From Candidatus Kaiserbacteria bacterium CG10_big_fil_rev_8_21_14_0_10_49_17 (GTDB taxonomy: Bacteria > Patescibacteriota > Minisyncoccia > Phycocordibacterales > JABMNX01): DNA of 55,426 bases. Under the pieces are notes generated by a model. It was not told the DNA's origin. It saw nothing but the letters and a program-made list of their open reading frames with translations, and did no database searches. Positions 11,993 through 43,287 of this stretch are shown in pieces. Positions within the stretch are counted from its first letter, which is position 1. Every line of letters begins with the position of its first letter. The translations under genes were made by a program, and so were the position numbers. The stretch covers positions 1 through 55,426 of the forward strand of contig PFBJ01000006.1 of NCBI GenBank assembly GCA_002778575.1, in the 5' to 3' direction.

Positions 11993-12640
11993 ATGATAAC
12001 TATGAAAACAGGCGCACACACACAAAAAGGTGCAGGAGCAGTCACTGCACTTCTGGTAATCGGTCTTCTTATTTTGGGGGGTTTTGGGTATTACTACATT
12101 TCACAGCAGGGCACTGAGGAAGAGATGCACAGCGATGAGAGCATGCAGGAAGGTGATGCAGTGATGGATAGCGGTCAGGGTGCGACAGGGGAAGAAGCGA
12201 TGATGGATGGGGATGCCATGGAAGGAGAGGTAATGATGAATGGAGATGTGATGATGGAAGTGTCGTTTTCCGGCTCTGTGCTTGCCGGATCGGATGATCG
12301 GGCGTTACTGCTTGACTTTAACAAAGCAGACTATGAAAAAGCGGTAGCAAGCGGAAAGCTTGTGGTCCTCTTTTTCTATGCCAACTGGTGTCCGGTATGC
12401 AAAGAAGAGTTTCCAAGAATGCAGAGCGCATTTAACAGTCTTAAAAGCGACCAGGTTGTCGGGTTTCGCGTAAATTACAACGACAATCAAACAGATGAAG
12501 ACGAGAAAGCGCTCGCTAGGGAATTTGGTGTTGGCTATCAGCACACGAAAGTCTTCGTAAAAAATGGAGAGCGAATTCTTAAGGCGCCCGAGAGTTGGAG
12601 TGAGGCGCAGTTTATCAGCACAATTAACGAAAACCTTTAA
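11993..12640 (+). CDS. membrane-anchored TlpA-like thioredoxin with a Met/Asp/Glu-rich linker
   Basis: 215 aa with an N-terminal TM, a WCPVC active site in a thioredoxin-like C-terminal domain, and 10 Met within aa 45-88. Confidence 0.8.
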   Translation: MITMKTGAHTQKGAGAVTALLVIGLLILGGFGYYYISQQGTEEEMHSDESMQEGDAVMDSGQGATGEEAMMDGDAMEGEVMMNGDVMMEVSFSGSVLAGSDDRALLLDFNKADYEKAVASGKLVVLFFYANWCPVCKEEFPRMQSAFNSLKSDQVVGFRVNYNDNQTDEDEKALAREFGVGYQHTKVFVKNGERILKAPESWSEAQFISTINENL

Positions 12641-12641
12641 T

Positions 12642-13364
12642 ATGGTGGACATCGGACTATTTGTTGCATTTACTGCAGGACTTGTCTCTTTTCTCTCTCC
12701 GTGCGTGCTGCCGCTTATCCCCGGCTACCTCGCGTACTTAGCTGGCGCGACACTTCCAAAAGAAGGTGAAGAGCAGCAGAGCTCCCAGCGGATGGCAATT
12801 TTCCTAAACTCGCTTGTCTTTGTCCTTGGCTTCTCGACAGTCTTTGCAATTCTCGGGGTGCTCCTCAATACGCTCCTTGAATCGGTGGCGTATGACGCAC
12901 AAGAGTGGCTCGCACGAATCGGTGGAGCTATCATTATTTTCTTTGGTTTGTGGCTTGTAGGACTCTTGCGTGTGCCATTCCTTGAACGCGAGCACAAGTT
13001 GCAGGTAAAGAGAAAATTCAGCTCACGGTACCTCACCTCATTCGTATTCGGTGCGGCATTTGCCGCTGGTTGGACGCCGTGTGTCGGCGCCGCACTCGGC
13101 GCGATACTCGGCCTTGCCGCGACGAGCCCCGGCGCCGCACTCTATCTTCTTTTTGCGTATTCGCTCGGCCTCGGCCTCCCGTTCCTTCTCGTCGGAGCAT
13201 TTGCCGCGCGAGCCACAGGTGTCATTAACCGCTACGCTCACATTCTCACGTACGTTAATAAGGCTTTTGGGGCGCTGCTTATTATTCTTGGGGTGCTTGT
13301 TTTCACACAGAGTCTGAATCTTATTGCAAGTTTTGGTCTTTTAAACTCGCTGCTCTTAAACTAG
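12642..13364 (+). CDS. ccdA: CcdA/DsbD-family thiol:disulfide electron transporter
   Basis: Start at MVDIGLFVAFTAGLVSFLSPCVLPLIPGY, and a second conserved Cys in AAGWTPCVG. Polytopic. Confidence 0.88.
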   Translation: MVDIGLFVAFTAGLVSFLSPCVLPLIPGYLAYLAGATLPKEGEEQQSSQRMAIFLNSLVFVLGFSTVFAILGVLLNTLLESVAYDAQEWLARIGGAIIIFFGLWLVGLLRVPFLEREHKLQVKRKFSSRYLTSFVFGAAFAAGWTPCVGAALGAILGLAATSPGAALYLLFAYSLGLGLPFLLVGAFAARATGVINRYAHILTYVNKAFGALLIILGVLVFTQSLNLIASFGLLNSLLLN

Positions 13365-13365
13365 T

Positions 13366-14490
13366 ATGGCTCGCTTTGGAAAACACATAACGCTCATTGT
13401 TGTTCTCATTGCAATTGTTGCAATTATTGGCGTACTTGAATTGCGAAAGCCGGCGCAAAGCGGCGGTGAGGGAAGTGATATAACAATTACGGATACAAAT
13501 GAGCGGGTGGCAATGAAAGAAAAAGAATTTGAACGTGCGAAAGAGATTTCAACACCTGATGGGTTCATTAATGCCACAGAAGACTTCAATATCAAAGATC
13601 TTATTGGGAAGAAAGTCGTTCTCGTCGACTTCTGGACCTACTCATGCATAAATTGTCAGCGTACGCTCCCGTACCTCAATGCGTGGAATAAGAAGTACGC
13701 TGATGAAGGGCTGGTGATTATCGGACTCCACACGCCCGAGTTTGAATTCGAGAAAAATTACGAAAATGTAAAGCGTGCAGTGGAGAAATGGGGTATTGAG
13801 TACCCCGTGGTGCTTGATAACGATTACTCTACATGGCGCGCGTATAAGAATCAGTACTGGCCGCGAAAATATTTGATTGATATCGACGGTTTTATCGTCT
13901 ATGAGCACATAGGCGAAGGAGGGTATAAAGAAACGGAGGAGAAAATAGTAGCGCTTCTCAATGAGCGCGCTCGGGTACTTGGAGAAGGTGGGGTAGTGGT
14001 TAGTGATACGGCACCTGAAAATGTTGATACAGTTGATTTCGGGAAGGTGCGCTCACCTGAGATGTACTTCGGTTATGCGAGAGTTGAGAATCTTGTCAAT
14101 CCATTAAAGAGCACCTGCACTGATTCTGTATGCCGATATGAGAAGCCGGCAACCATTCCACTGAATGGCTTTGCGCTTAGTGGTGCGTGGAATATTGAAA
14201 GAGAGAAGGCAACACTTGCAGACTCTTCGGGATCGGTAACGCTGTATTTTAATGCCAATAAGGTGAATCTTGTTGCTGGAGCTGACGGGGCTGTGCGCGC
14301 AGAGATTTACCTTGATGGAAAGAAAGTAACAGAGAACCACGCTGGGTACTCAGTGGGGAGCGGAGTTGTCGAGTTTAACGAGCACGACCTCTATAACCTT
14401 ATAGACTTGCGTGGGCAGTACGGTGCGCATGAGCTTGAGATACGATTCCTTGACGGGAGTGTTTCTGCCTTTGCATTCACATTCGGATAA
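13366..14490 (+). CDS. DipZ-like extracytoplasmic thioredoxin-fold protein with a C-terminal beta-rich domain
   Basis: 374 aa with an N-terminal TM and VDFWTYSCINCQRTLPYL, a CxxC redoxin signature. Confidence 0.8.
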   Translation: MARFGKHITLIVVLIAIVAIIGVLELRKPAQSGGEGSDITITDTNERVAMKEKEFERAKEISTPDGFINATEDFNIKDLIGKKVVLVDFWTYSCINCQRTLPYLNAWNKKYADEGLVIIGLHTPEFEFEKNYENVKRAVEKWGIEYPVVLDNDYSTWRAYKNQYWPRKYLIDIDGFIVYEHIGEGGYKETEEKIVALLNERARVLGEGGVVVSDTAPENVDTVDFGKVRSPEMYFGYARVENLVNPLKSTCTDSVCRYEKPATIPLNGFALSGAWNIEREKATLADSSGSVTLYFNANKVNLVAGADGAVRAEIYLDGKKVTENHAGYSVGSGVVEFNEHDLYNLIDLRGQYGAHELEIRFLDGSVSAFAFTFG

Positions 14491-16747: not shown

Positions 16748-16772
16748 GACCTTAACAACACGAACATACCGC

Positions 16773-16824
16773 AATCGACTCAATCAGGTGAATAAGCCTG
16801 CCTGCCGGCACAGGCAAGTCGATT
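16773..16824. repeat. intergenic palindromic repeat, copy B (composite)
   Basis: aatcgactcaatcaggtgaataagcctgcctgccggcacaggcaagtcgatt followed by TTTT. Confidence 0.8.
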
Positions 16825-16841
16825 TTTGGGTATACTAAGGT

Positions 16842-18043: not shown

Positions 18044-18128
18044 CCTCTTGTGTGTATTCCCGTTGCTATTTAGTGCTATGATGAAGTAAGTGGCGCGAAA
18101 GCGTATTTATTAGAAATGCATTGATACT

Positions 18129-18284
18129 ATGAAAGCACTCATTTGGATTGTAGTCGTAGCGGTTGTGGCTGTCGGAGGGTACTACCTCTACAGTAACTAC
18201 ATGGCTACTGATTCTTCAGACGCGACAAGCGAAGAATCGAGCGACGGCACATCTGCCGACGCGTCAGCAGACGTTTCTCTGTAA
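18129..18284 (+). CDS. 51-aa membrane-anchored peptide with an acidic Ser/Asp tail
   Basis: MKALIWIVVVAVVAVGGYYLYSNYMATDSSDATSEESSDGTSADASADVSL. It is below the ORF-track cutoff and is followed by a strong terminator. Confidence 0.45.
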   Translation: MKALIWIVVVAVVAVGGYYLYSNYMATDSSDATSEESSDGTSADASADVSL

Positions 18285-18305: not shown

Positions 18306-18337
18306 AAAACGCCCCACGGATAGACCGTGGGGCGTTT
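18306..18337. terminator. bidirectional terminator
   Basis: aaaacgccccacgg-ataga-ccgtggggcgttt. Confidence 0.85.
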
Positions 18338-18362: not shown

Positions 18363-19394
18363 CTACTTCTTGGCGGCCGCCTTGCGCGCCCGCTTTTCTG
18401 CCTTCTTCGGATTGCTCCGAAGGTCGGGCTTACCGCCGCCCGGGCCCTTTTGGTGTCCGAGCTGGCTCGTCTCGAGCTGGCGGGCGCGGCGTTCCGCCTC
18501 CTTCTTCGCGCGCTCATTCGCGCACGAGGAGACGGAGTCGGCAGAGCACTGCGCCTTCTTAAGGCGAGCCATGCTCATCTCGTCGCCGTGCTCGAAAAGC
18601 ACGCCCTTCACCTCATCGAAGACAATCCCCGGCAGGGGACCGTTCTCCTCGATGTTCTTGAGGAGCGCTTCGAAAGCCGAGCGGCGATTGCTCGGGTTGC
18701 GGTTGACCGCGATGGCCGAGACGAGCTCGAAGTGAGCACGGTCACGGACCTTGCGGTCCGTCGAGGAGGCGAAGAGATTCTCCGCCCACAAGACGCGGGC
18801 CTCGATCTGCTCCTCGACAGTGAGCGTAACCGTCTCGAGACGGTTGTTGGTGCAGATGATACGCACCACTTCGCCGGTGGGGTGGAAGACCGTCACCGAC
18901 TGGCCCTCCATGAGCTCAAAGAGCGCCTCGCCGTTGCCGGCCTTGATGAGGCACTTTTCGTCTTCCGAGGAGTGTGCGCCGAAGTAGAACTTGTGCTTCG
19001 GCTTGACCCCCGAGGGGAGACGCGAGTTGACGAAGAGCATGTGGCTCTGCGTACCCTCATCCGGCCGGACGAGGAAGAGCAGGTCGGCCTTCTCCTCGCG
19101 GGGGACGCGCTTAAGCGCCATCCGCCGGACGTAGGCGCTGGTGGCGCCATTCGGGCGGTAGAGGCAGCCGTGGCGGCTGTTATCCCGCAGAATGAAGAAG
19201 GAGCCGACAAACAGTGCCGGTCTCCCGCCGCACAGCGGGTGCCCCGTCTCAATGTCGATATCGGCCGAGAGACCGGAAGCGACACTGTAGGTCCAGCAGT
19301 TGTTCGGCAGCGCACCTTCGGCGCTAAGCGCACTGTGGAGCGTGGAAGCCGAATTGGGGCGGTGCTCCTGAGTGGTCACGTGAGAGCCGTGCAT
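18363..19394 (-). CDS. orphan protein encoded by a high-GC island, with a Lys/Arg-rich C-terminal tail
   Basis: The minus-frame codons are GC3-rich (for example CCG AAG AAG GCA GAA AAG CGG GCG CGC AAG GCG GCC GCC AAG AAG TAG). GGAGGG lies 4 nt before the chosen ATG (MHGSHV). No family was recognised. Confidence 0.7.
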   Translation of the reverse strand: MHGSHVTTQEHRPNSASTLHSALSAEGALPNNCWTYSVASGLSADIDIETGHPLCGGRPALFVGSFFILRDNSRHGCLYRPNGATSAYVRRMALKRVPREEKADLLFLVRPDEGTQSHMLFVNSRLPSGVKPKHKFYFGAHSSEDEKCLIKAGNGEALFELMEGQSVTVFHPTGEVVRIICTNNRLETVTLTVEEQIEARVLWAENLFASSTDRKVRDRAHFELVSAIAVNRNPSNRRSAFEALLKNIEENGPLPGIVFDEVKGVLFEHGDEMSMARLKKAQCSADSVSSCANERAKKEAERRARQLETSQLGHQKGPGGGKPDLRSNPKKAEKRARKAAAKK

Positions 19395-19507
19395 AGTTCC
19401 CTCCATTTTCAAAAGTGGCGAAATACTGCCACAAACACAAAACCGCGGAAATACTAGCATATATAAGACATTCTGTCAATAGCATTAAAAAAAATATCGA
19501 TCCGCTC

Positions 19508-19553
19508 ATACCGCCAATCGACTCATTCACCTGATTGAGTCGATTGGCGGTAT
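19508..19553. repeat. intergenic palindromic repeat, copy C (perfect 18-bp arms)
   Basis: ataccgccaatcgactca-ttcacctgat-tgagtcgattggcggtat. In reverse complement its core shares 21/21 nt with the start of copy B. Confidence 0.85.
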
Positions 19554-19563
19554 ACTGAAAGCA

Positions 19564-19632
19564 ATGAAGTGGAAGATACTATTTGTCGTGGCACTCTTTA
19601 TTCTTATTTTTGCGCTTGCATCAGTTCGCTAG
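19564..19632 (+). CDS. 22-codon signal-anchor-like mini-ORF upstream of msrA
   Basis: MKWKILFVVALFILIFALASVR-TAG. TATACT lies 7 nt upstream, and the stop is followed by one nt and then the msrA ATG. Confidence 0.35.
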   Translation: MKWKILFVVALFILIFALASVR

Positions 19633-19633
19633 T

Positions 19634-20086
19634 ATGGAAAAGGCACTGTTTGCAGCAGGGTGTTTTTGGGGAGTGGAAGCGGAATTCCAAGCTATTGAAG
19701 GAGTTGTTGATACGCGGGTGGGCTATAGCGGTGGACATACGCAAAACCCAACTTACGAAGACGTGTGTAGCGGTGAGACGGGGTATGCGGAGACGGTAGA
19801 GGTTACATACGATCCGGCAGTTATTTCATATAGGGAATTAGTGAAAGCATTTTTTAAAATGCATGATCCAACGCAGGAAAACGGACAGGGTCCTGATAGC
19901 GGGGAGCAGTATCGCTCTGCTATTTTTTTCTTTACGCCTGAGCAGGAAAAAAGAGCGCATGAAGTAACAGAAGAAATCAGTTCAGACTATAAAAAAGACA
20001 TACAAACGGAAATCACCCCCGCGGGACCTTTTTACGAGGCTGAGGAGTACCATCAGGATTACCTAAAAAAGAAGCGTCGCACATAG
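19634..20086 (+). CDS. msrA: peptide-methionine (S)-S-oxide reductase MsrA
   Basis: MEKALFAAGCFWGVEAEF...GYSGG...DPT motifs. Confidence 0.92.
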   Translation: MEKALFAAGCFWGVEAEFQAIEGVVDTRVGYSGGHTQNPTYEDVCSGETGYAETVEVTYDPAVISYRELVKAFFKMHDPTQENGQGPDSGEQYRSAIFFFTPEQEKRAHEVTEEISSDYKKDIQTEITPAGPFYEAEEYHQDYLKKKRRT

Positions 20087-20158
20087 AGGGCACCAAAGCC
20101 TTTAAGAGCTCTTCGGTACGGAAATGCGTAAGGCTTCGCTTCGGCATCTCGCTCGCTT

Positions 20159-20216
20159 CCTGCCTATGCTGGCAGGCCTACCTACCGGCAGGCAGGCTTA
20201 CCTACCGGCAGGGGGG
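20159..20216. repeat. CCTGCC hairpin plus a tandem 2 x 20-nt copy of the CCTACCTACCGGCAGGCAGG module (copy D)
   Basis: cctgcc-tatgct-ggcagg, then cctacctaccggcaggcagg and cttacctaccggcagggggg. Confidence 0.8.
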
Positions 20217-20228
20217 TACGTCGCTAAT

Positions 20229-20258
20229 AAAAAACGCCGCGTGCTTGCACGCGGCGTT
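20229..20258 (-). terminator. hairpin terminator for the minus-strand M14-like gene
   Basis: aacgccgcgtgc..gcacgcggcgtt, with a T-run on the minus strand. Confidence 0.75.
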
Positions 20259-20261
20259 AGT

Positions 20262-21389
20262 CTACAGGGAATTGATCCGAGCAAGAGCCGAGTAGAGAAC
20301 AGTGTTCATTCGCGGCACGATTGCGTCACGCCAGGCTCTTTGGCGCGGATAGAATACATTGAGCATGGTCTGTGCAGTCCACGTGTCGTTGCGGTCAGCG
20401 CGCCCCTCGCGAAGAGATTTCAGAACGCAATTGCGCCACCGTACCGCAAGGACAGCCCGCACTATCCACTTACTGCCGAGTTCCGCGCAGACGCCGGTAT
20501 AGGTCCGAGTGGCAGGGAGCTCGTCAAAGAAAGCATTTTCGATGACACCGGCACTTGAGCTGGTATACGGATTGTCCTCCTTTGTTGAGAACAGTGCCGG
20601 ACCGAAAAATTCTTTCGCTCGCTGGTGGTCTGGGCTTTTTGGATCGTAAATTGTAATAAGAACCGCTTCGGCCTTTACGATTGACGGACCAAGACCTGAG
20701 TGGATGTCTATGTGGACATCGTGTCCCGGCACGTCATAACTGTACTGGCGAATAATCTCTCGGGTGGTGAGCGTGCTCCACGTTGGACCTGAGCCGACGT
20801 AGAGCATCTTGTCTTTGTGCACCCACTGCCCGATATTCATCATTCGTTGCAGTACCGCGTCGCCCTTCCGCATTCTATGGGCAAGCAGGCGCCCGATTCG
20901 CATGCACTCAGCCATAAGCGTTAACGATTCGGGATTGAGATCCTCATCAACGGCCGCGTACGATTTGGTGTACTGCTTCCGTTTCGGCCAGCGTTTTCGA
21001 AATGAGCGATTGGTATCCGAATTTTCTTCATTGACGCGTGAATGCCAACTTGAGCCCCATGGAGTAATGTTATCCACCAGGACAAGGCAGCACTCTTTGC
21101 CGAGCAATCGCTTGATGAAGGGGGCGTTTTCGAGAAGCCAGCAAAGGTAGACGGTTCCGCAGTAGCGCTCGATGCCGTGTATACCCGTGGTTATCCAAAT
21201 GCGGTGTTTTGCCTCGGGGTCCCCGATGATAGCCACACGGGTAGTCAACTCCTCTTCATCCCGTCCACGCAGCCCTGTATCATTCGTGAGGCTGAATTCC
21301 TCATGTTTGATTCCAGCGTTGCCAAGAGCTTGCAGTATCGCCGTATCCGCGTGCGCGCCGCGCGTGAATGCGCTTGAGAGCAGTTCCAT
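20262..21389 (-). CDS. M14-like (DUF2817-type) putative zinc carboxypeptidase/deacylase
   Basis: 375 aa with TGIHGIE (an HxxE-type zinc motif) near the N-terminus. GGAGGGAAG lies 7 nt upstream of the chosen ATG (MELLSS). Confidence 0.5.
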   Translation of the reverse strand: MELLSSAFTRGAHADTAILQALGNAGIKHEEFSLTNDTGLRGRDEEELTTRVAIIGDPEAKHRIWITTGIHGIERYCGTVYLCWLLENAPFIKRLLGKECCLVLVDNITPWGSSWHSRVNEENSDTNRSFRKRWPKRKQYTKSYAAVDEDLNPESLTLMAECMRIGRLLAHRMRKGDAVLQRMMNIGQWVHKDKMLYVGSGPTWSTLTTREIIRQYSYDVPGHDVHIDIHSGLGPSIVKAEAVLITIYDPKSPDHQRAKEFFGPALFSTKEDNPYTSSSAGVIENAFFDELPATRTYTGVCAELGSKWIVRAVLAVRWRNCVLKSLREGRADRNDTWTAQTMLNVFYPRQRAWRDAIVPRMNTVLYSALARINSL

Positions 21390-21459
21390 TGTGCTTCCCT
21401 CCGGTATATATCCTCTTTGGAGTGTGCGGCAAGAATGGATGAAGGTCAAATAGTTTCTA

Positions 21460-21468
21460 TGGTAGTAT
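21460..21468 (+). promoter_or_regulatory. extended -10 box TGGTAGTAT, 6 nt before the ATG at 21475
   Basis: Read directly. No SD is present. Confidence 0.5.
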
Positions 21469-21474
21469 GTGTGT

Positions 21475-22008
21475 ATGAAGTGGATAGTCGGCATTACAAT
21501 CCTTCTTGCGGTTTTGGCAGGGCTCTTTTTCTTTACTCGAGATCAAGTACAAGAGCTGGTTACGGTGACAACGTTTCAGGAGTGTGTCGCCGCAGGGAAT
21601 CCTGTCATGGAGAGCTACCCGCGACAGTGCAGTCATGAGGGGCAGCACTTCGTCGAGGAGATTGGAAATGAATTAGAAAAAAGAGACCTTATTCGCGTGA
21701 ATACCCCGCGGCCAAATGCTGAAATTGAATCCCCGCTTACCATAACCGGAGAGGCGCGCGGATACTGGTACTTCGAGGCCACTTTCCCAGTCATCCTTAC
21801 TGATTGGGACGGGCGGATTATTGCGGAAGGGTATGCGAGCGCACAGGATGACTGGATGACTGAAGCGTTTGTGCCATTTACAGCAACACTTGAATTTACC
21901 GTAGACACGTCAGTTTCAAATCGTGGTTCGCTTATCCTTAAGAAGGATAATCCATCAGGACTACCGGAGCACGACGACGCACTGGAGTTCCCGGTGTACT
22001 TTAAATAG
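21475..22008 (+). CDS. membrane-anchored protein with a Gmad2-type Ig-like domain
   Basis: MKWIVGITILLAVLAGLFFF anchor. IESPLTITGEARGYWYFEATFPVILTDWDGRIIAEG fits the Gmad2 pattern. Confidence 0.55.
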   Translation: MKWIVGITILLAVLAGLFFFTRDQVQELVTVTTFQECVAAGNPVMESYPRQCSHEGQHFVEEIGNELEKRDLIRVNTPRPNAEIESPLTITGEARGYWYFEATFPVILTDWDGRIIAEGYASAQDDWMTEAFVPFTATLEFTVDTSVSNRGSLILKKDNPSGLPEHDDALEFPVYFK

Positions 22009-22009
22009 C

Positions 22010-22453
22010 ATGCACTCCCGAGTTCTTTCAGTTATTGCACTTGCTACATTCGGTATTATTGATGCGGGGTACCTTTCGTGGGCACGCTTCACGGGCTCGT
22101 CACTTTCTTGCAATATTCTCAATGGGTGCAATGTGGTTGCGGCAAGTCCCGAGTCAGTCCTCTTTGGTATTATGCCCCTTTCATACCTTGGGCTTCTTTT
22201 CTACATAGGCATATTCGCGCTTGGTGTTTTGTTGCTCGTACAGGATGCAAAGCTGTTTAGAGTACTGCTCGTACTTGCCACACTTGGCGGCTTCCTAGCC
22301 TCTGTGTACTTCACGTACCTGCAGGCGTTTGTTATTAATGCGTTTTGCATCTACTGCCTTACGTCGGCGGTACTCTCCACGCTTCTCTTTGGATTTTCTA
22401 TTTGGGTGTACTACACAAAAGAAGAAAGCCCTGCCAGTGTGGCAGAGCTCTAG
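22010..22453 (+). CDS. vitamin K epoxide reductase (VKOR) family protein
   Basis: Four TM segments, loop cysteines SCNILNGC, and a CIYC (CxxC) motif in a TM helix. Confidence 0.78.
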   Translation: MHSRVLSVIALATFGIIDAGYLSWARFTGSSLSCNILNGCNVVAASPESVLFGIMPLSYLGLLFYIGIFALGVLLLVQDAKLFRVLLVLATLGGFLASVYFTYLQAFVINAFCIYCLTSAVLSTLLFGFSIWVYYTKEESPASVAEL

Positions 22454-22614
22454 AGCAATTTTGGATGATCAATTTTTTTCTCCCGTGTACGGAGGCGGTC
22501 AGGCGTACGAATAGGGAGGTTTTTGTCGCGCCCCGGTCGCGGGCGAAGAATTATCTGGCCCTTAGTGTGGATAGCGGATTGCTATACTAAAGACAGAATC
22601 AAGAGGAGAGGATA

Positions 22615-23340
22615 ATGCCCAAAGGCGAAGATTTCGTCGATGGGCTTACGCCCACGACGAGTTCCTTGAAACAAGATCCGAGAGATGCGGATCCGGTAAA
22701 ACTAAATCCTGAAGTACGGGAAGGTGAGAGAGTGGTCTTTCTTACCCGTGGCTTCATAACGACGGTTGACGAGTCGGAATACGAGCGTGTTATGAGATAT
22801 TCATGGCACGCGAATATCCAGCCACACGGTGACGGACACTTTAAGATTTATGCTGTACGGGGGCGACGAGCCTCTGAGGGTTTTCCAAAAGGTGCAAAGC
22901 AGTATCTCCATCGCTTCTTAGTGTTGGCCGAAGAGCATCCTGATATTCATGTTGACCATCTGGATGGTAACTCCCTTCGAAATTCTCTGAAAAACTTAGC
23001 TCCTGGACTGCCTATACACAACAAGATGAATTTGCGGTGTGGAGGTAGTGGCAATGTCCCAGAGTATGTAGGCGTATACCGCTTTCCATCAACCGCAAAA
23101 AACGGAAACAGTTCTAAGCCGTTCGAAGCGAGCTTCAATTTTATGGGAGAGCGCTTCTTTTGTGGACGATTTGCTACCGCATACGAAGCGGCTCTTGCTC
23201 GAGACACCGCTCTTCTCGAGGAGCATAAAAAATGGGGTATTCCACCCATTGTGAGCAATAATGTTCTGAATTTCCCCCATGAAGACACTGAAGAGAAACG
23301 TCAGTGCATACAGAGGGTTGATGAAGAAATTCCCTTTTGA
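22615..23340 (+). CDS. HNH endonuclease fused to an AP2 DNA-binding domain (homing-endonuclease-like)
   Basis: HRFLV...VDHLDGNSLRNSLKNL (HNH) and YVGVYRF...FEASFNFMGERFFCGRFATAYEAALARD (AP2). It has a GGAGAGG SD, and TGCTATACT at 22580..22588. Confidence 0.8.
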   Translation: MPKGEDFVDGLTPTTSSLKQDPRDADPVKLNPEVREGERVVFLTRGFITTVDESEYERVMRYSWHANIQPHGDGHFKIYAVRGRRASEGFPKGAKQYLHRFLVLAEEHPDIHVDHLDGNSLRNSLKNLAPGLPIHNKMNLRCGGSGNVPEYVGVYRFPSTAKNGNSSKPFEASFNFMGERFFCGRFATAYEAALARDTALLEEHKKWGIPPIVSNNVLNFPHEDTEEKRQCIQRVDEEIPF

Positions 23341-23373
23341 CCGGCTCCCGTAGGAGCCGGTTCTTTCTTTTTT
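23341..23373 (+). terminator. rho-independent terminator
   Basis: ccggctcc-cgta-ggagccgg followed by ttctttctttttt. Confidence 0.85.
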
Positions 23374-23419
23374 CCGAGGAGCGTGCATACTATTTTCTAG
23401 GTCAGGTATGGAGGCGAAT

Positions 23420-23635
23420 ATGAGCGAGAACTGTCTCCTTCGGCAAGCGTGGGAAGGGGGAGGCGAGAGCCTCCACCTTTCTGAAGAAGATTTGCGGATT
23501 TTCCAGTGTCGAAAAAAGTTGAAGCAAAAAGGAGATCCGCGCTCGGTGCGCCGCCCGTCAGACTACAGGCTTCTCAAGCTCTTTCGGGAGAAAGGAAGCC
23601 CAATTGGCTTTGGTGTGTGGATCCACTTGATGTAG
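23420..23635 (+). CDS. small hypothetical protein
   Basis: 71 aa starting at MSENCLL, with GGAGG 5 nt upstream and its own terminator. Confidence 0.4.
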   Translation: MSENCLLRQAWEGGGESLHLSEEDLRIFQCRKKLKQKGDPRSVRRPSDYRLLKLFREKGSPIGFGVWIHLM

Positions 23636-23660
23636 GGGCAGAAATGCCCCTCATTTTTTT
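23635..23660 (+). terminator. rho-independent terminator
   Basis: ggggca-gaaa-tgcccc followed by tcattttttt. Confidence 0.8.
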
Positions 23661-23735
23661 GCATGCCCCGGAGATAACTTGTGTATAGTTTCTCATTGTT
23701 TTTTATGGCGTATCTCACGGGGTATACTATACGCA

Positions 23736-24512
23736 ATGTCATTTATATCCCGCATTCGCTCTATTGATGAGTCGGATAAGTCTATAGCAGTAGAGAAACT
23801 TATTGCTGCAAGTACGCCTGATTTTGATTTCTTCCTTCTGACGACCCTTTCGGTCTTGATGGCGACATTCGGGCTTCTCCTTGATAGCGCAACGGTGATC
23901 ATCGGCAGTATGCTTATTGCGCCACTGCTCTACCCAATACTCTCACTTTCAGTATCGGTTTCCATGGCTGACTACCGCCTATTGCGCCGGTCGCTCTCAA
24001 CGCTTGGCAAAGCGACAGTCCTTACCGTTGGCGCGTCTGCGATTATTACACTTTTCTTTTCATACGATTACTCTATTGGAAGTGAAATACTTTCCCGTGC
24101 CGAACCGTCACTTGTGTACTTTTTGGTTGCGGTTATCTCTGGTATCGCAGTGTCATACACAATGGTGCGTCCCGACCTCTCAGAGACTCTGCCGGGCATT
24201 GCAGTTGCGGTAGCGCTCCTGCCGCCGCTTGCGACAGTGGGAGTTGGCATTGCGGAGCTACAGTGGACTGTCGTCTCTGGTGCGATAGTACTCTTTTTAC
24301 TCAATGTTGTCGGTATCGTAGGGGCGAGTATTGTGATGTTTTCTCTCATGAACCTTTACTCGAAACGCTCAGTTGCAGAGCGCACTGTAGTGCGAGAAGA
24401 AGTTCGTGTTGTAAAAGAGAAAGAGAAAGCAAAAGAAATAGATGAGTGGGACAAGGCAGTTGACGGTGCCATCAAGGCTGATGCTGTGCGAGAAGAGGAG
24501 AATGGGAAGTAG
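23736..24512 (+). CDS. DUF389-like polytopic membrane protein
   Basis: DFDFFLLTTLSVLMATFGLLLDSATVIIGSMLIAPLLYPI pattern. TATACT lies 7 nt upstream of the ATG. Confidence 0.55.
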   Translation: MSFISRIRSIDESDKSIAVEKLIAASTPDFDFFLLTTLSVLMATFGLLLDSATVIIGSMLIAPLLYPILSLSVSVSMADYRLLRRSLSTLGKATVLTVGASAIITLFFSYDYSIGSEILSRAEPSLVYFLVAVISGIAVSYTMVRPDLSETLPGIAVAVALLPPLATVGVGIAELQWTVVSGAIVLFLLNVVGIVGASIVMFSLMNLYSKRSVAERTVVREEVRVVKEKEKAKEIDEWDKAVDGAIKADAVREEENGK

Positions 24513-24571
24513 GGAATATACAGCCGTATATGAAAGCTCATCAGGCTTTTCAGGGCTTTTTTTGATGGCGG

Positions 24572-24577
24572 TATACT
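24572..24577 (+). promoter_or_regulatory. -10 box TATACT, 6 nt before the dinB ATG
   Basis: ggcggTATACTggagcaATG. Confidence 0.5.
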
Positions 24578-24583
24578 GGAGCA

Positions 24584-25660
24584 ATGCGGATTGTAGGCCA
24601 CATTGATCTCGATGCATTTTTTGCGTCTGTTGAAGAGCGTGACAAGCCGTACCTGCGGGGGTTGCCGGTAGTGGTTGGCGCGGATCCCAAAGGAGGCGCA
24701 GGGCGCGGTGTTGTGTCAACGGCAAACTATGCGGCGCGTAAGTACGGTATACGTTCAGCTCTTCCTATCAAAACTGCATGGCGGCTCTCAGAGGAAGCAA
24801 AAGCCCGCGGCGAGAGAGCGTGTGCGTTCATTGCGCCGTCATTTAGCCGGTACCGTCCGGCGTCAAAAGCGATATTTGATATTGTTGCTCAGTATACGCC
24901 GTGCTTTGAGCAGAGCAGTATTGATGAAGCGTATCTTGACCTCTCACATCTGCGAACATATACAAAGGCACGAGAAGAGATGGAGAAAATGAAACGAGAG
25001 ATACGCAGAAAGACCAAACTCTCAAGCTCTATTGGTATCGGTCCGTCAAAGCTTGTCGCAAAAATAGCATCTGATGTAGATAAGCCGAATGGCCTTACGG
25101 TTGTCCGCCCGAAAGACGTTGAGAAATTTCTTGGCAGTATGCCAGTGCGCGCTATTCCCGGTATCGGACCGAAGGCAGCAGCGGTCCTGCAAAAAATAGG
25201 AGTGGAAAAAGTGGCAGATGCTCGAATGTACTCGTGGGAGGAACTGGAAAAGCACTTTGGAAAGTGGGGGTTCGTGCTTTATGAGCGGGTGCGCGGCATA
25301 GATGAGCGGGAGGTATTAGCAGAGCCGGAAGATGCGAAATCTATCGGGAAGCACAAAACATTTGCTGAAGACATGCTCAATTTCAATGCAATTGTCGCCG
25401 AACTTCGTAGGATGAGTGCATCGCTCATTCGCAGTCTTTCGAAAAAGGGATTTGTCGGATTTCGTACGGTCGTGCTGACGGTGCGCTTTGCTGATTTTAC
25501 AACCCGTACCCGCTCAGTAACGAGCGCGCTACCAATGGCAAGTGAGCGGGAATTGAATGCAAAAATGATGAAGCTCCTCCTCCCTTTTTTTGAGGGGAAA
25601 GAGAATCCGCAAAAAAAGAAGATTCGGCTTGTTGGGCTGCGAATAGAGAAGTTGCTGTAA
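24584..25660 (+). CDS. dinB: DNA polymerase IV (Y-family)
   Basis: MRIVGHIDLDAFFASVEERD, SIDEAYLD, and the little-finger region. Confidence 0.92.
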   Translation: MRIVGHIDLDAFFASVEERDKPYLRGLPVVVGADPKGGAGRGVVSTANYAARKYGIRSALPIKTAWRLSEEAKARGERACAFIAPSFSRYRPASKAIFDIVAQYTPCFEQSSIDEAYLDLSHLRTYTKAREEMEKMKREIRRKTKLSSSIGIGPSKLVAKIASDVDKPNGLTVVRPKDVEKFLGSMPVRAIPGIGPKAAAVLQKIGVEKVADARMYSWEELEKHFGKWGFVLYERVRGIDEREVLAEPEDAKSIGKHKTFAEDMLNFNAIVAELRRMSASLIRSLSKKGFVGFRTVVLTVRFADFTTRTRSVTSALPMASERELNAKMMKLLLPFFEGKENPQKKKIRLVGLRIEKLL

Positions 25661-25687
25661 GAAACCGCAGGGCGCACGCCCTGCGGT

Positions 25688-26122
25688 CTAAAGTATCATC
25701 CGCTCTCCGTGGGTCAGTTTGTCCGCGTGGACTTCAACCCATTCAATTCCGACCAAGACCATATACTCCTGACAGAGGTCTTCAATGCGTGGCCAGAAGC
25801 GGTCATCGGCGAGTCTGCATACTGCTGAGCCATTTCGAGGGGTGGAGAGAGAAATGCAGACATGCGGCTTGCCGTGACGGTCGCCGCGGAGCTGGAACTT
25901 AAAATGCTCCCCAATTGCAATCGAAAGCAACGTGCGTCGTGGTGGAACCATGAGCACCCTGTCTCCCAACCGTCGGTGGTAGAGAAGGGGGTACTCACAC
26001 AGTGGCTGAATTCTACGAGCCATACGCTGCAGTGTCTCCTCTTGGGCGCGGCGGTGGTGTGGATGCTCTGCTCGAGCGAGCAGTGCCGGGTGTTCAAATG
26101 CGGGGACAAGTTCGCTCATCAT
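25688..26122 (-). CDS. hypothetical protein (His/Arg-rich, mildly GC-enriched)
   Basis: 144 aa with GAGGG 7 nt upstream of ATGATG. A second overlapping minus-frame ORF (25714..26109) is judged spurious. Confidence 0.45.
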   Translation of the reverse strand: MMSELVPAFEHPALLARAEHPHHRRAQEETLQRMARRIQPLCEYPLLYHRRLGDRVLMVPPRRTLLSIAIGEHFKFQLRGDRHGKPHVCISLSTPRNGSAVCRLADDRFWPRIEDLCQEYMVLVGIEWVEVHADKLTHGERMIL

Positions 26123-26274
26123 GACAGGACCCTCACTCTTATTCTATTGCTATTACATACCCCCATATGGCACGGGTCAACCAAACGTGGTGCATAAATC
26201 TGTAATTTGACTAAAGGAAAAAAGAATGGTACCATAAAGCAACTGTTCTTTCTCTTAGAAATAATTATTACTCT

Positions 26275-26739
26275 ATGAATAAAGGAATCTCACTTACACT
26301 TTTCGGCGCTTTGGTGGCGCTCGTGATGCCACTTTCAGCACACGCGGCTCTCGGTTGTGCTCCAGCTCGCACAAGCACATCCGTAGGAGGTGATGTGGCT
26401 CTAGCAGCCACTGGCGGTTTTACCGCGTATAACTGGGTGACAGAAAACGAGACACACCTTAATATCGGGCCAACTTTTGTTGTAGACTTTGACAAACCGG
26501 GGACCCACGTTGTCTACGTAACTAGCCAGCACGAAACCGCGTTTTGTGTGGTTGATGTTTTCGGCTCAGTTGGAAGTTCTGGTAATACATCGGGGAATAC
26601 CGGTACTCCTGGACTTCCAAACACTGGCGGCGGCGGTTCGCTTTTCGTAACATTCGCAACAGCGTTCCTCGTACTCGGCTTCATCGCTCTTTCGGTAACG
26701 TGGGGGCGAAAGACGCTGCGCTCCATCACTCAATCCTAA
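26275..26739 (+). CDS. LPNTG-anchored small surface protein (sortase substrate)
   Basis: Signal peptide ...PLSAHA, then LPNTG at nt 26614..26628, followed by a hydrophobic segment and a WGRK basic tail. Confidence 0.8.
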   Translation: MNKGISLTLFGALVALVMPLSAHAALGCAPARTSTSVGGDVALAATGGFTAYNWVTENETHLNIGPTFVVDFDKPGTHVVYVTSQHETAFCVVDVFGSVGSSGNTSGNTGTPGLPNTGGGGSLFVTFATAFLVLGFIALSVTWGRKTLRSITQS

Positions 26740-26743
26740 CTCT

Positions 26744-27373
26744 ATGTACTGGCCACAGTGGCATACGTTATTTATTGCCTTTTGTATTGCTTCCGTCTTA
26801 ACCGGAGGGCTCGGGCTCGTGGTGCACGCAGGTTCACTTATTCCGTATACGGTTGACGCGCAACTAGCTTCTACATTTTCCGGACTCACTGCACCTCAGG
26901 ATACACACGCAGCTCATGGGGGTGCCACGCCGGTAGTGCCGGCAGTGCTGCGCATTCCAGCACTCGATGTTGAAGCGCGCGTACAGCATGTAGGCCTCCA
27001 CCCGTCCGGGCGCATGGCGGTGCCGAGCAATTACTCTGATGTCGCGTGGTATAAGAGCGGCGCACTTCCAGGCGAGTACGGCAGTGCGGTTATTGCAGGA
27101 CACCTCGATGACAGTCTTGGTTTTCAGGCGGTCTTTGCGCGCCTCGGCGATCTTTCCGTTGGTGATTTGGTGTATGTGGAAGATGTTTTCGGAAATGAGC
27201 GGGTCTTCCGTGTTAAAACGAAAGCGGTGTACAGCACGGACTTTGCTCCAGTTGATAAAATTTTCAATGATACGTCCGGACAGCACCTTACACTCATTAC
27301 TTGTGACGGGGCATGGGACAGTGGCAAGAAAAGCTATGAGCGGCGCTTGGTGGTTTACACGGAAGCGCTCTAA
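26744..27373 (+). CDS. sortase (cysteine transpeptidase)
   Basis: N-terminal TM, AVIAGHLD (His), HLTLITCDG (TLxTC Cys), and the C-terminal Arg region ERRLVVY. Confidence 0.85.
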   Translation: MYWPQWHTLFIAFCIASVLTGGLGLVVHAGSLIPYTVDAQLASTFSGLTAPQDTHAAHGGATPVVPAVLRIPALDVEARVQHVGLHPSGRMAVPSNYSDVAWYKSGALPGEYGSAVIAGHLDDSLGFQAVFARLGDLSVGDLVYVEDVFGNERVFRVKTKAVYSTDFAPVDKIFNDTSGQHLTLITCDGAWDSGKKSYERRLVVYTEAL

Positions 27374-27391
27374 ATACCTATTGCAAAAATA

Positions 27392-27426
27392 GACCTGCCT
27401 GCCGGTAGGCAAGCAGGTCGATTTTT
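27392..27426 (+). terminator. repeat-derived terminator (repeat copy E)
   Basis: gacctgcctgcc-ggta-ggcaagcaggtc followed by gaTTTTT, lying 18 nt after the sortase stop. Confidence 0.75.
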
Positions 27427-27452
27427 GCTTTGGTATAGGCCATTTTTGAGAA

Positions 27453-27461
27453 TGGTATACT
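27453..27461 (+). promoter_or_regulatory. extended -10 box TGGTATACT, 6 nt before the bcp ATG
   Basis: Read directly. No SD is present. Confidence 0.55.
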
Positions 27462-27467
27462 TTCGGT

Positions 27468-27947
27468 ATGAAAAAAACATTGATACCAGGAGTTTCTGCC
27501 CCGGAGTTTCGTCTTCCTGATCAAAACGGTAAAGAGCGCTCTCTTGCTGATTTTAGCGGTAAATGGGTTGTACTGTATTTCTATCCCAAAGACGATACTC
27601 CAGGGTGCACCACTGAGGCAAAAGCATTCAAAGATGCTAATAGGAAATTACAACAACGCGGGGCAGTTGTTGTAGGAATCTCGCCCGACTCTCCTGTGCG
27701 TCACAGTACATTTATTAAAAAGTATGCGCTACCGTTCCTACTTCTTTCTGATGAAAATAAAAAGGTGCTTCGTACCTACGGCGTCTGGAAGAAGAAAAAA
27801 TTTATGGGGCGGGAGTATATGGGAGTATTGCGCGAAACGCTTCTCATTGACCCGAACGGTACCATTGCCAAAGTGTACGAAAAAGTAACGCCTGCCACTC
27901 ACGCCGACGAAATTATTACGGATCTTACTGCACTCCAAAAAACATGA
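27468..27947 (+). CDS. bcp: thiol peroxidase Bcp (peroxiredoxin Q type)
   Basis: VVLYFYPKDDTPGCTTEA. Confidence 0.9.
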   Translation: MKKTLIPGVSAPEFRLPDQNGKERSLADFSGKWVVLYFYPKDDTPGCTTEAKAFKDANRKLQQRGAVVVGISPDSPVRHSTFIKKYALPFLLLSDENKKVLRTYGVWKKKKFMGREYMGVLRETLLIDPNGTIAKVYEKVTPATHADEIITDLTALQKT

Positions 27948-28612
27948 GTCCACAGAAGCGCAGAGTGCGACGGGAGCGAGCGAAGGAAATGATGCGGGTT
28001 TTAAAAAAACTCTACCCGAATCCGGAGACAGAGCTTATCTACTCCAGTAATTGGGAATTGCTCGTTGCGGTTATTCTCTCCGCGCAGTGTACGGATAAGC
28101 GCGTCAATGAAGTAACGAAGACGCTATTTAAAAAATATAAAACGCTCGATGACTACGTTCACGCAAATCGCGAGGAATTCGAGCACGATATTAAACCGAC
28201 CGGCTTCTATCGCAATAAAGCAAAAAATATTCTCAACGCGGCGAAGGTTCTCAAAGAAGAGTTTAACGGGAGACTGCCAAAGACAATCACAGAGATGCTC
28301 ACTATTCCCGGAGTGGCGCGAAAAACTGCCAATGTGGTGCTCGGCAATGCCTACGGCATACACGAGGGTATCGCTGTTGATACGCATGTCAGGCGACTCG
28401 CAATCCGGTTTGACTTAACGGATTACACCGACCCGATTCGTATTGAAAAAGATTTAATGGAAATTATTCCAAAAGAGGAGTGGCCGTATGTAAATCATGC
28501 CATGGTGCTCTACGGGCGCTACATATGTCCGGCCCGTGTGCATGAGTGCGAGAAGCACCCACTGACAAAAATATACCCACGCGCAGTAGACATATGGCCA
28601 AAAGCAAAATAG
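27944..28612 (+). CDS. nth: endonuclease III-like HhH-GPD DNA glycosylase
   Basis: LVAVILSAQCTDKRVN, the HhH segment LTIPGVARKTANVVL, and catalytic-region DTHV. ATGA overlap with bcp. Confidence 0.88.
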   Translation: MSPQKRRVRRERAKEMMRVLKKLYPNPETELIYSSNWELLVAVILSAQCTDKRVNEVTKTLFKKYKTLDDYVHANREEFEHDIKPTGFYRNKAKNILNAAKVLKEEFNGRLPKTITEMLTIPGVARKTANVVLGNAYGIHEGIAVDTHVRRLAIRFDLTDYTDPIRIEKDLMEIIPKEEWPYVNHAMVLYGRYICPARVHECEKHPLTKIYPRAVDIWPKAK

Positions 28613-28621
28613 AAACGCGCC

Positions 28622-28957
28622 TCAACAGTAGAGGCGCGCGTGAGGCGGAAAGAGATGTGCAATTGAGCGAGCGTACGTTGCCTGTTGTAGAACAGCTTCC
28701 ATGGTCTTGCCCTGACGGCACGCCTCGACGGCGAGCAGGTGCACGAATGCTTCGCTCAGTCTCCCTGACGGGAAGCGTGAAGCAAAGGCAGTCAACTCCA
28801 TGCGTTCTTCAAATGGCAGGTGTACGGCGATTTCCTCAAAGACGAGGTCTTGCCGCTCGGGCGGGAAATCCGCAATATGCGCCGCTACCTGTTCAGGGTT
28901 GAATGGACCATGAGAGCCGTGGATGAAAAAGAAAACAGACGCTATCTGCGTGCTCAT
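28622..28957 (-). CDS. hypothetical protein
   Basis: 111 aa from MSTQIASV. The track ORF extends to 29041, but that extension would run through the divergent HAD gene promoter and start. Confidence 0.4.
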   Translation of the reverse strand: MSTQIASVFFFIHGSHGPFNPEQVAAHIADFPPERQDLVFEEIAVHLPFEERMELTAFASRFPSGRLSEAFVHLLAVEACRQGKTMEAVLQQATYARSIAHLFPPHARLYC

Positions 28958-29010
28958 TGCTACCCCCACGTACAGTGAATCTGTCGGAATAGTAGCAAAT
29001 AAGAAAGGTG

Positions 29011-29019
29011 TGGCACAAT
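29011..29019 (+). promoter_or_regulatory. extended -10 box TGGCACAAT, 6 nt before the ATG at 29026
   Basis: Read directly. Confidence 0.45.
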
Positions 29020-29025
29020 GGGGGT

Positions 29026-29712
29026 ATGAGAAAGGTGGCAATTTTTGATATTGATGGGACTGTGTTTCGGTCGAGTCTTGCTATTGAGCTTACCGAAGCG
29101 CTCATTGCTGAGGGCATTTTCCCTGAGAGTGCCCGCAAAGAGTACGAAATGCAGTTTAAAAAATGGGCTGACAGGGAGGGGAAGTACCAAGATTACATTG
29201 ATGCCATCGTGAAGGTTTTTATGAAGAATATAAAAGGCGTGCACTACGCAGACTTCTCACGTGTTGCTGAGGCTCTCGTGAGCGAACGCGGCAAGCGCGT
29301 CTATCGCTATACGCGGGATTTGGTAAAGGAGTTGCGCAGAAAGCGGTACTTTGTATTGGCGATATCGCAGTCCCCGAAAACTATTCTTGAAGGATTTTGT
29401 AAAAACATGGGATTTCATAAAGTGTACGGACGCATGTACGAGCTCGGTCCCTCTGATCGTTTTACTGGGAAAATTATTGATGTGCATCTCATTGAAAATA
29501 AGGCAAACATTGTGCGTCGTGCTGTTAAAAAGGAAGGACTTACGCTTACGGGTTCAATCGGAGTGGGCGACACTGAAAGCGACATTGCATTTCTTGAGCT
29601 TGTTGATGAGCCAATTTGCTTCAATCCAAACAGCAAGCTCTACCGGCATGCGAAGCGAAACAATTGGAAAATTATTGTGGAGAGGAAAGACGTTATCTAC
29701 GAATTAGAGTAG
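29026..29712 (+). CDS. HAD-IB family hydrolase (phosphoserine phosphatase-like)
   Basis: VAIFDIDGTV, ISQSP and GVGDTESD motifs. Confidence 0.8.
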   Translation: MRKVAIFDIDGTVFRSSLAIELTEALIAEGIFPESARKEYEMQFKKWADREGKYQDYIDAIVKVFMKNIKGVHYADFSRVAEALVSERGKRVYRYTRDLVKELRRKRYFVLAISQSPKTILEGFCKNMGFHKVYGRMYELGPSDRFTGKIIDVHLIENKANIVRRAVKKEGLTLTGSIGVGDTESDIAFLELVDEPICFNPNSKLYRHAKRNNWKIIVERKDVIYELE

Positions 29713-42461: not shown

Positions 42462-42549
<88 letters not shown>

Positions 42550-43214: not shown

Positions 43215-43220
43215 ACATTC

Positions 43221-43281: not shown

Positions 43282-43287
43282 AGGTGT

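Follow-up and report, generated by a model that had tools for sequence, protein, structure and literature searches.

The stretch of DNA analysed here (the window, 55,426 nucleotides (nt) of contig PFBJ01000006.1 from Candidatus Kaiserbacteria bacterium CG10_big_fil_rev_8_21_14_0_10_49_17) contains between positions 18363 and 19394 a single minus-strand gene whose G+C content departs sharply from that of its surroundings. The gene encodes a member of a protein family that so far appears to be restricted to the candidate phyla radiation (CPR), and it looks vertically inherited and not recently transferred, because syntenic orthologs in relatives share the high G+C content. The explanation that we favour, and hold to be moderately probable, is that a vertically inherited CPR gene has a messenger RNA (mRNA) selected to be GC-rich, A-poor and folded, and a product that is abundant, cytoplasmic and polyanion-binding. 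Under this explanation the gene would be a monocistronic chromosomal unit, running from 19394 to 18363 in a Paceibacterota-type Patescibacteria/CPR bacterium, in which high G+C is maintained within the coding sequence (CDS) rather than left behind as a scar of transfer. Selection would act on the mRNA, keeping it GC-rich, A-poor and heavily base-paired, and a near-consensus extended -10 promoter, a strong Shine-Dalgarno (SD) sequence and a strong terminator would drive the message, with a long-lived, nuclease-resistant, high-output transcript as the presumed outcome. The protein, from a fast-evolving and uncharacterised family with a beta-rich N-terminal domain, a six-helix domain and a polybasic tail, would be abundant in the cytoplasm and bind a polyanion through its basic tail, most plausibly nucleic acid (RNA or the ribosome, or the nucleoid).

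The interval 18363-19394 has a G+C content of 63.95%, compared with 48.7% for the rest of the window, and 1032-nt windows elsewhere have a mean of 48.7% with a standard deviation of 1.9 and a maximum of 54.7, so that the interval lies at z = 7.95. In the minus frame the G+C content at codon positions 1/2/3 is 0.625 / 0.453 / 0.840. For the third position (GC3), the 53 other genes of the window that are defined by open reading frames (ORFs) average 0.497 +/- 0.049 and reach at most 0.60, which puts the gene at z = 7. The contrast with the surroundings that an earlier note on this DNA had drawn from a few hand-counted lines is therefore real. GC1, GC2 and the content of Gly, Ala, Arg and Pro (GARP) are slightly raised, the codon usage is like that of a genome of about 64% G+C, A-ending codons make up 4% of the gene, and the codons TTA, CTA and TCA are absent. 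The density of stop codons falls to 35.9 per kb, compared with 70.1 per kb elsewhere in the window, and five ORFs of at least 100 amino acids (aa) overlap the interval. These are stacked four deep at 18450-18517, as the earlier note had observed, but the pile-up is not unique, since a 17-nt spot of the same depth occurs at 33569-33585. The step in G+C falls at the start and stop codons of the CDS: 100-nt windows just upstream of the ATG have values of 0.34-0.39, the promoter and 5' untranslated region (UTR) are AT-rich and host-like, and the GC richness is limited to the CDS. In its composition, the interval is thus atypical for the host, as a recently acquired island would be.

The order GC3 > GC1 > GC2 is seen only in the minus frame, all 84 homologous clusters found by exhaustive HMMER search match the minus-strand product, and the promoter, SD sequence and terminator are all on the same strand as this gene. 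The earlier assignment of the coding strand is upheld by these observations, as is the description of the locus as a single-gene unit, which is monocistronic with its own promoter and terminator; the length of the protein, given before as 344 aa, is 343 aa plus the stop codon. An upstream ATG at 19460 would extend the ORF to 365 aa, but is an unlikely start because it is located upstream of the predicted -10 box. The opposite strand carries a codon-aligned shadow ORF of up to 335 aa, which stays open because the true gene has no TTA, CTA or TCA codons. Its G+C content by codon position (0.84 / 0.45 / 0.63) is the inverse of the coding pattern, and in the ortholog on contig L002 of a relative (JGI Ga0066639_10033464; 80% aa and 81% nt identity) the antisense frame is split into pieces of at most 109 aa. 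These breaks and the inverse pattern rule out a real antisense or overlapping gene. Public annotations from NCBI, ENA/Logan and JGI nevertheless call the gene on the wrong strand: exact-sequence look-ups found the antisense product deposited with 334 aa (ENA/Logan), 289 aa (NCBI/UniRef) and 241 aa (JGI), the true gene on record only as a 79-aa GTG-started fragment (P0001), and no record of the 343-aa or the 365-aa product in the collections. The protein seemed to be an orphan, and word-indexed search came back empty, because the records carry only the antisense ORF and this fragment. With the wrong strand called by three public pipelines, databases lack the true protein and the family is under-counted; compositional outliers in metagenome-assembled genomes (MAGs) of CPR bacteria are probably exposed to such miscalls in general, and others may be hidden likewise.

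Public pipelines that call the plus-strand ORF, together with a JGI contig that ends inside the island, could be taken as signs of an artefact, namely an assembly chimera, or a plus-strand 335-aa ORF that is the real gene or a second, overlapping one. The chance of this is close to negligible. Contig L009, from the same JGI sample as L002, is 99.99% identical to window positions 18731-29457 and covers the right junction, while the left junction is reproduced in the relative L002, so that a chimera is excluded; furthermore, 63-kb contigs from NCBI and from ENA/Logan span the gene independently. As for the plus-strand ORF, no homologue matches it, its codon-position pattern is inverted, it is interrupted in L002, and it exists only through the three missing codons. 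In the JGI assembly of sample 3300004210 both co-occurring relatives have a contig break within the gene, at the end of L009 (window 18731) and at the start of L002 (window ~19136), perhaps because GC-rich DNA was poorly covered or because the strains resemble each other here.

The most direct evidence on the history of the gene comes from its relatives. On L002 the ortholog is followed by the same terminator, a gene for a 51-53-aa membrane protein, YgjP, an S49 peptidase and a SurA-like gene, and its GC3 is 0.82, compared with 0.43 in the neighbours on L002. A recent island should be absent or differently composed in relatives, but here the same locus has kept the same composition. Syntenic orthologs of like composition were also what the earlier note had named as evidence against its own reading. 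A deeper syntenic pair, contigs L004 and L011, retains the family gene between a Lactamase_B_3 gene and an S1 gene. In this pair GyrA is 83%, S1 82% and the family protein 42% identical, and the GC3 of the family gene is 0.80 and 0.72, compared with locus means of 0.68 and 0.51. In all eight independent loci that have enough neighbours GC3 exceeds the local mean, by +0.12 to +0.42 (mean +0.28, Wilcoxon p = 0.004), and on the two short contigs L001 and L003 the gene likewise stands out from its flanks. The neighbourhoods of the family consist of housekeeping genes that differ between lineages, with T4SS_pilin genes near the copies on L004 and L011.

The earlier note had read the locus as recently acquired from a partner organism or phage of high G+C, which would make it a single foreign gene that has not yet ameliorated. 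The strongly atypical G+C and GC3, the codon usage and the slight rise of GC1, GC2 and GARP would fit such an event, yet we regard it as very improbable. The syntenic ortholog on L002 has kept its G+C although synonymous sites in the flanks are saturated, and the L004/L011 pair still has high GC3 at 42% protein identity. In addition, the promoter and UTR are host-like, no integrase, transposase, flanking direct repeats or att-like borders were found at the window gene, and the closest tRNA is more than 23 kb away. Sequence comparison did not reveal a donor either: blastn and tblastn against phages, tblastn against plasmids and four scans of viral contigs returned no relative, scans of genome contigs with the island protein and the S49 peptidase alignment found nothing, the scans for close relatives gave no match to a GTDB genome, and the named homologues are all from CPR bacteria, so that neither a phage, plasmid or viral homologue nor one from outside the CPR came to light.

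Between the window and L002 the gene has 81% nt identity, compared with 73-78% in its neighbours. Its nonsynonymous and synonymous divergences are dN = 0.133 and dS = 0.60 (dN/dS 0.22), while in the flanks dN is ~0.11 and dS 1.1-1.9 for the S49 peptidase and SurA-like genes, with YgjP saturated. The synonymous rate of the gene is therefore 2-3 times below that of the neighbours, with dN equal or higher. Changes between strong and weak base pairs (S-to-W plus W-to-S) affect 25% of its four-fold sites, compared with 36-54% in the neighbours. The lower dS and the fewer four-fold changes indicate that synonymous sites in this gene are constrained.

What may constrain them is suggested by the folding of the message. 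The minimum free energy (MFE) of each gene was compared with that of sequences in which synonymous codons had been shuffled within the gene, with protein and codon usage fixed (14-24 shuffles per gene). In 8/8 family genes the native sense RNA was more stable than the shuffles, with z of -2.3 to -6.8 (mean -3.9) and an excess of folding energy of 4-14% of the MFE, while 21 control genes, some of them GC-rich genes from L004, had a mean z of -0.87 (Mann-Whitney p = 9e-5 against the family). The stability excess was larger for the sense than for the antisense RNA, again in 8/8 family genes, which suggests that the mRNA, and not the DNA, is the target of selection. Discrete long inverted repeats were rejected as the source of this stability, as only many short complementary stretches were found, and Rfam, searched at gathering thresholds and at E <= 1, had no match in the gene or its surroundings. 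Codon bias arising from translational selection was likewise considered and discarded: GroEL and GroES have balanced codons, with AAA/AAG counts of 27/26 in GroEL and 0/22 in the GC-rich gene, and ribosomal and RNA polymerase neighbours in other loci are not GC3-rich.

Two further accounts would explain the composition by exchange between genomes. In the first, a promoter-gene-terminator cassette is recurrently transferred among CPR bacteria from a GC-rich reservoir (such as a CPR lineage of high G+C, or a phage or plasmid of CPR bacteria that has not been sampled), so that each copy is relatively young and its G+C is replenished by transfer and not by selection. The genomic context indeed varies between most loci, the unit is self-contained in that it includes a promoter and a terminator, and the dS between window and L002 is below that of the flanks while dN is not, as if the gene had been exchanged after the flanks diverged; moreover, the window strain and the L002 relative co-occur in one sample. 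On L010 a second, unrelated small GC-rich gene adjoins the family gene: it encodes 113 aa directly upstream (86-427, plus strand), has its own promoter and terminator, and reaches a G+C content of 0.61 and a GC3 of 0.76 in a host of ~0.45. Monocistronic genes with high G+C may be more widespread in these genomes than this one family. We nevertheless judge the cassette to be unlikely, since the gene holds its place in two independent syntenic pairs, of which one is very deep, and neither integrases and transposases nor repeats and att-like borders are seen. Furthermore, the G+C step stops exactly at the ends of the CDS with AT-rich control regions, an excess of RNA structure specific to the sense strand is not predicted by recurrent transfer, and matches in viral, phage and plasmid sequences were not found. 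In the second account the gene is a hotspot of recombination between strains, where a repair bias (GC-biased gene conversion) lifts GC3. This is in keeping with a dS below that of the flanks between co-occurring relatives, and with JGI assemblies that break inside the gene in both strains, but does not account for a G+C step that ends at the start and stop codons, or for an excess of RNA structure biased to the sense strand. To our knowledge, a GC3 excess of +0.12 to +0.42 is also far above the effects of gene conversion reported for bacteria, and we consider this account improbable.

The favoured explanation, selection on the message of a vertically inherited gene, is also in line with the signals that surround the CDS. 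The SD sequence GGAGGG claimed by the earlier note is present 4 nt before the ATG, and its rarity in the region holds, as GGAGG occurs near a candidate start in only 5/54 ORFs of the window. Upstream, a sigma-70-type promoter (TTGACA, 17-nt spacer, TG-n-TAGTAT) predicts a 5' UTR of ~50 nt. The same arrangement of TTGAC[AT], a 16-17 nt spacer and an extended -10 is found in 7/7 family loci with upstream sequence, at 82-89 nt before the start codon in six of them and at -46 in L001. Most family loci have a short stem-loop in the 5' UTR, followed by a purine-rich GGAG-type SD sequence, and intrinsic terminators downstream. The bidirectional terminator of the window gene was also described correctly before; it forms a 13-bp perfect stem (dG -25.7 kcal/mol, z -8.9), after which the minus strand has a U-run. 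From these signals we infer that the message is strongly and independently expressed as a monocistronic unit, and the protein may be among the abundant proteins of these cells, as judged from the strength and conservation of the expression signals.

Between the gene and the divergent msrA lies a near-perfect palindrome of 46 bp, with 22-nt arms that are 95% complementary (dG ~ -35 kcal/mol) and include the 18 perfect nt already noticed; it may act as an operator or an insulating hairpin. A degenerate second copy of this palindrome (ATACCGCCAATCGACTCA...), interrupted by an inner GC hairpin, is located at 16766-16835 upstream of the S49 peptidase gene, and this copy also occurs in the relative L002 (2702-2790). 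Both copies in the window end in GGTATACT just ahead of a plus-strand gene (msrA and the S49 peptidase gene, respectively), and may represent an operator common to the two genes, part of a promoter, or a small repeat. On the other side, the small gene convergent with the GC-rich gene (18129-18284, plus strand; L002 859-1020, minus strand) is conserved, encodes 51-53 aa with one transmembrane helix, and ends in an acidic tail rich in Ser, Asp and Glu (MKALIWIVVVAVVAVGGYYLY...); that a gene for an acidic tail lies beside one for a basic tail may be a coincidence. On L002 an extra gene for a Cys-rich protein of 116 aa (1152-1502; GFA/CENP-V-like by eye) lies between the small gene and YgjP. It is missing from the window (18044-18128), giving a one-gene indel beside the locus.

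The protein itself is not the orphan that it had been taken for. An exhaustive HMMER search over 1.84 billion representatives (E <= 1e-3) yielded 84 clusters, 34 of them at E <= 1e-10, with a best full-length homologue at E = 5e-30 and 40% identity. Members are mostly 330-370 aa long and share the architecture, including the basic tail; the only two with names, P0005 and P0075, are hypothetical proteins from MAGs of Candidatus Paceibacterota/Pacebacteria. Word-indexed homology search found no relative with the single protein, and family profiles recovered only P0080 and P0085. The earlier statement that no family can be recognised does stand with respect to described families, since the window protein has no significant match in Pfam, NCBIfam, PHROGs or PADLOC, and 49 family members searched against the same collections gave only scattered single chance matches. 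Full-text literature searches likewise returned no relevant account of a lysine-rich or abundant unknown protein in CPR bacteria.

A single-sequence AlphaFold2 (AF2) model was poor (predicted local distance difference test, pLDDT, of 53) and was not used, but with an alignment of 49 family sequences AF2 gave a model with a pLDDT of 90.7 and a predicted template modelling (TM) score of 0.79. The model opens with an N-terminal helix, which is followed by the beta-rich domain, whose strands span aa 33-190 of the model, with the conserved alignment columns P-x-NCF, HP...PAL-x-VG, GC-x-Y, G-x-VRRA and VFY-x-DG-x-V, by the six-helix domain, and by a stretch of low to moderate confidence (aa 314-328) that leads into a predicted basic terminal helix. 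Foldseek found no match at E < 1e-3 in PDB or BFVD (best PDB match E = 0.023, TM = 0.12; best BFVD match E = 0.0046, TM = 0.16), and a profile search against PDB sequences gave E >= 0.088 and no related chain. The fold of the family, as modelled, may be previously unseen. Few polar residues are invariant, namely R200 and the arginines of VRRA, which suggests a binding rather than a catalytic role. No signal peptide or transmembrane segment is visible in the family sequences.

The Lys/Arg-rich C-terminus reads as the earlier note had quoted it. The last 55 aa of the window protein carry a net charge of +11 while the body is neutral, and among 68 full-length members the tail charge is +10.8 +/- 2.3, reaching at least +5 in 67/68. 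Tailed members have one of two tail types, either G-rich with poly-Lys, or 'SNP-x-K plus basic helix' as in the window protein. A short subfamily (P0007, P0008, P0016 and P0047; 260-284 aa) has no polybasic tail and ends in an Ala-rich, amphipathic-looking helix (...TALAAALERAFAKQK). The tail could also be read differently, as the translocation signal of an effector that is secreted to a host cell, e.g. through a type IV secretion-like apparatus of CPR bacteria, with the helical repeat domain as the host-binding module. VirB/D4 substrates reportedly carry positively charged C-terminal signals, and the conserved positive tail, the fast evolution of the protein with a dN/dS above that of neighbours, the weak ARM/HEAT-like similarity of the helical domain, and the T4SS_pilin genes within 10 kb in L004 and L011 can all be brought into such a scheme. 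Even so, a secreted effector seems rather unlikely. No type IV secretion genes are seen in the 55-kb window, the linkage to T4SS_pilin genes is confined to one syntenic pair, and the family is apparently single-copy in the stretches examined and fixed in position in both pairs, unlike typical effector repertoires; the features of the mRNA would also go unexplained.

Several points weigh against selection on the message of an abundant, nucleic-acid-binding protein. On the side of the mRNA, the GC3 excess in L004 is small (z = 1.6-2.1), the MFE test is an in silico comparison with 14-24 shuffles in which some controls reach z = -3.5, and the hairpin in the 5' UTR of the window gene lacks significance (z = -0.5). 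The translation start is not predicted to lie in a particularly open region, with pair probabilities of 0.52-0.80 compared with 0.65-0.69 in the CDS body. The lower dS between window and L002 could also stem from a more recent exchange between co-occurring relatives. On the side of the protein, high expression is deduced from sequence signals as its sole basis, neither HMM nor fold searches detected a known nucleic-acid-binding fold, and rapid evolution (42% identity where GyrA has 83%) is unusual for a core factor of the nucleoid or ribosome. Structural relatives among cellular proteins may exist, as the fold search covered PDB and BFVD.

A more specific proposal, which we put forward only tentatively, is that the family represents gene-specific, long-term selection on an mRNA as a physical object, in a CPR family with a fast-diverging protein. 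The basic-tailed protein and its own structured transcript could then form a functional or autoregulatory ribonucleoprotein, or the message might survive dormancy, or an attack by host or toxin RNases that destroys AU-rich CPR transcripts. We know of no described family that keeps a large gene-specific GC3 excess together with excess mRNA structure across deep divergence while its protein evolves fast. If this proposal is correct, atypical G+C would mark function and not foreign origin. Atypical G+C is routinely taken as a sign of horizontal transfer, and this family offers a counter-example in which it is a conserved and apparently selected trait, as well as a tractable case of selection on synonymous sites in the ultra-small CPR bacteria. 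About half of the genes of CPR bacteria are unknown, and with a confident model, no match among solved or viral structures and a conserved polybasic tail, the protein is a good target for structural and functional work.

The features of the locus are collected in Table 1, together with RNase P RNA and two tRNA genes as ordinary chromosomal markers of the window. Genes of thiol and redox metabolism are frequent nearby (11993-14490, 19634-20086, ~22000-22450 and 27468-27947), comprising thioredoxin-like, DsbD_TM, Thioredoxin_10/AhpC-TSA, MsrA, VKOR, AhpC-TSA and DoxX, with no evident link to the GC-rich gene. An inverted repeat with 28-nt arms (86% complementary, 29-nt spacer) lies at 43209-43293, at the 3' ends of two convergent ORFs.

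Table 1. Coordinates of the GC-rich gene, its predicted control elements and protein domains, and chromosomal markers in the window
Feature	Position	Strand	Remarks
True CDS	18363..19394	-	343 aa + TAG stop (18363-18365); uncharacterised CPR family member; supported by GC3, 84 clusters, AF2 and dN/dS
Antisense codon-aligned shadow ORF	18453..19457	+	up to 335 aa; annotated publicly as a gene; not a real gene
Sigma-70-type promoter (predicted)	19451..19479	-	TTGACA, 17-nt spacer, TG-n-TAGTAT (extended -10); 10/12 matches, TG present
Shine-Dalgarno GGAGGG	19399..19404	-	4 nt before ATG; read from the sequence
Bidirectional intrinsic terminator	18307..18337		shared with convergent small gene 18129-18284; conserved in L002
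46-bp near-perfect palindrome	19508..19553		divergent intergenic region between this gene and msrA; unit membership uncertain
N-terminal beta-rich domain (model)	18825..19313	-	~aa 28-190, ~15 strands; AF2 pLDDT 95-98
C-terminal six-helix domain (model)	18456..18818	-	aa 193-313; LS-x-EEQA-xx-R motif, invariant R200
Gly-rich linker and polybasic C-terminal tail (KGPGGGKPDLRSNPKKAEKRARKAAAKK)	18366..18455	-	charge counted over last 55 aa
RNase P RNA class A	48422-48779	-	112.7 bits; ordinary chromosomal marker
tRNA-Ser(GGA)	42462-42549	+	ordinary chromosomal marker
tRNA-Arg(CCU)	54834-54906	-	ordinary chromosomal marker

Compared with known systems, the locus resembles genomic islets of horizontal gene transfer (HGT) in its sharp single-gene anomaly of G+C and GC3 and in having its own promoter and terminator. 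Unlike HGT islets, it is syntenic and of the same composition in relatives, has no mobility genes, tRNA or border repeats, and shows host-like control regions and synonymous sites that are constrained and not decaying; it is islet-like in composition, but departs from an islet in three of the four tests by which islets are defined. Nor does it have the attributes of a phage or defence gene, as PHROGs matched 0/49 members, PADLOC gave one chance match, phage DNA and protein searches found no match, and the context is one of housekeeping genes. The wrong-strand records have a parallel in the shadow-ORF miscalls of GC-rich DNA, in which the antisense ORF is open as A-ending codons are avoided; gene finders trained on a genome of 49% G+C choose the antisense frame, which is an annotation artefact and not biology.

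With type IV secretion substrates the family shares a positively charged, unstructured C-terminus. The six-helix domain has local Foldseek matches to designed ARM repeat proteins with probabilities up to 0.97, but at E >= 0.05 and TM <= 0.22, and the Arm and HEAT families of Pfam were touched by only 1/49 members (E 0.004 to 0.05), so that the domain is not a member of the Armadillo/HEAT repeat proteins. Bacterial nucleoid proteins that are histone-H1-like or carry polybasic tails include Chlamydia Hc1, the mycobacterial Hlp/HupB with its C-terminal tail, and Pseudomonas AlgP. The family is like them in being probably cytoplasmic and in joining a Lys/Arg/Ala-rich, disordered or helical basic tail to a folded body. 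It is unlike them in that HMM and fold searches did not find a known DNA-binding domain such as HU or H1, its tail is short (~30-55 aa) and free of long KAAK/PAKK repeats, and the folded part is a 300-aa two-domain module with no match in PDB or BFVD, for which binding is a prediction. Finally, some bacterial mRNAs, such as the ompA, lpp and S-layer gene transcripts, are long-lived and highly expressed and have protective features. In the present family the CDS is enriched in G+C throughout its length and more structured than its synonymous shuffles, features not described for those transcripts, and the stability of its message is a proposed property; like them, the unit is monocistronic, with a near-consensus promoter, a ~50-nt 5' UTR that forms a hairpin in most members, a strong SD sequence and a strong terminator.

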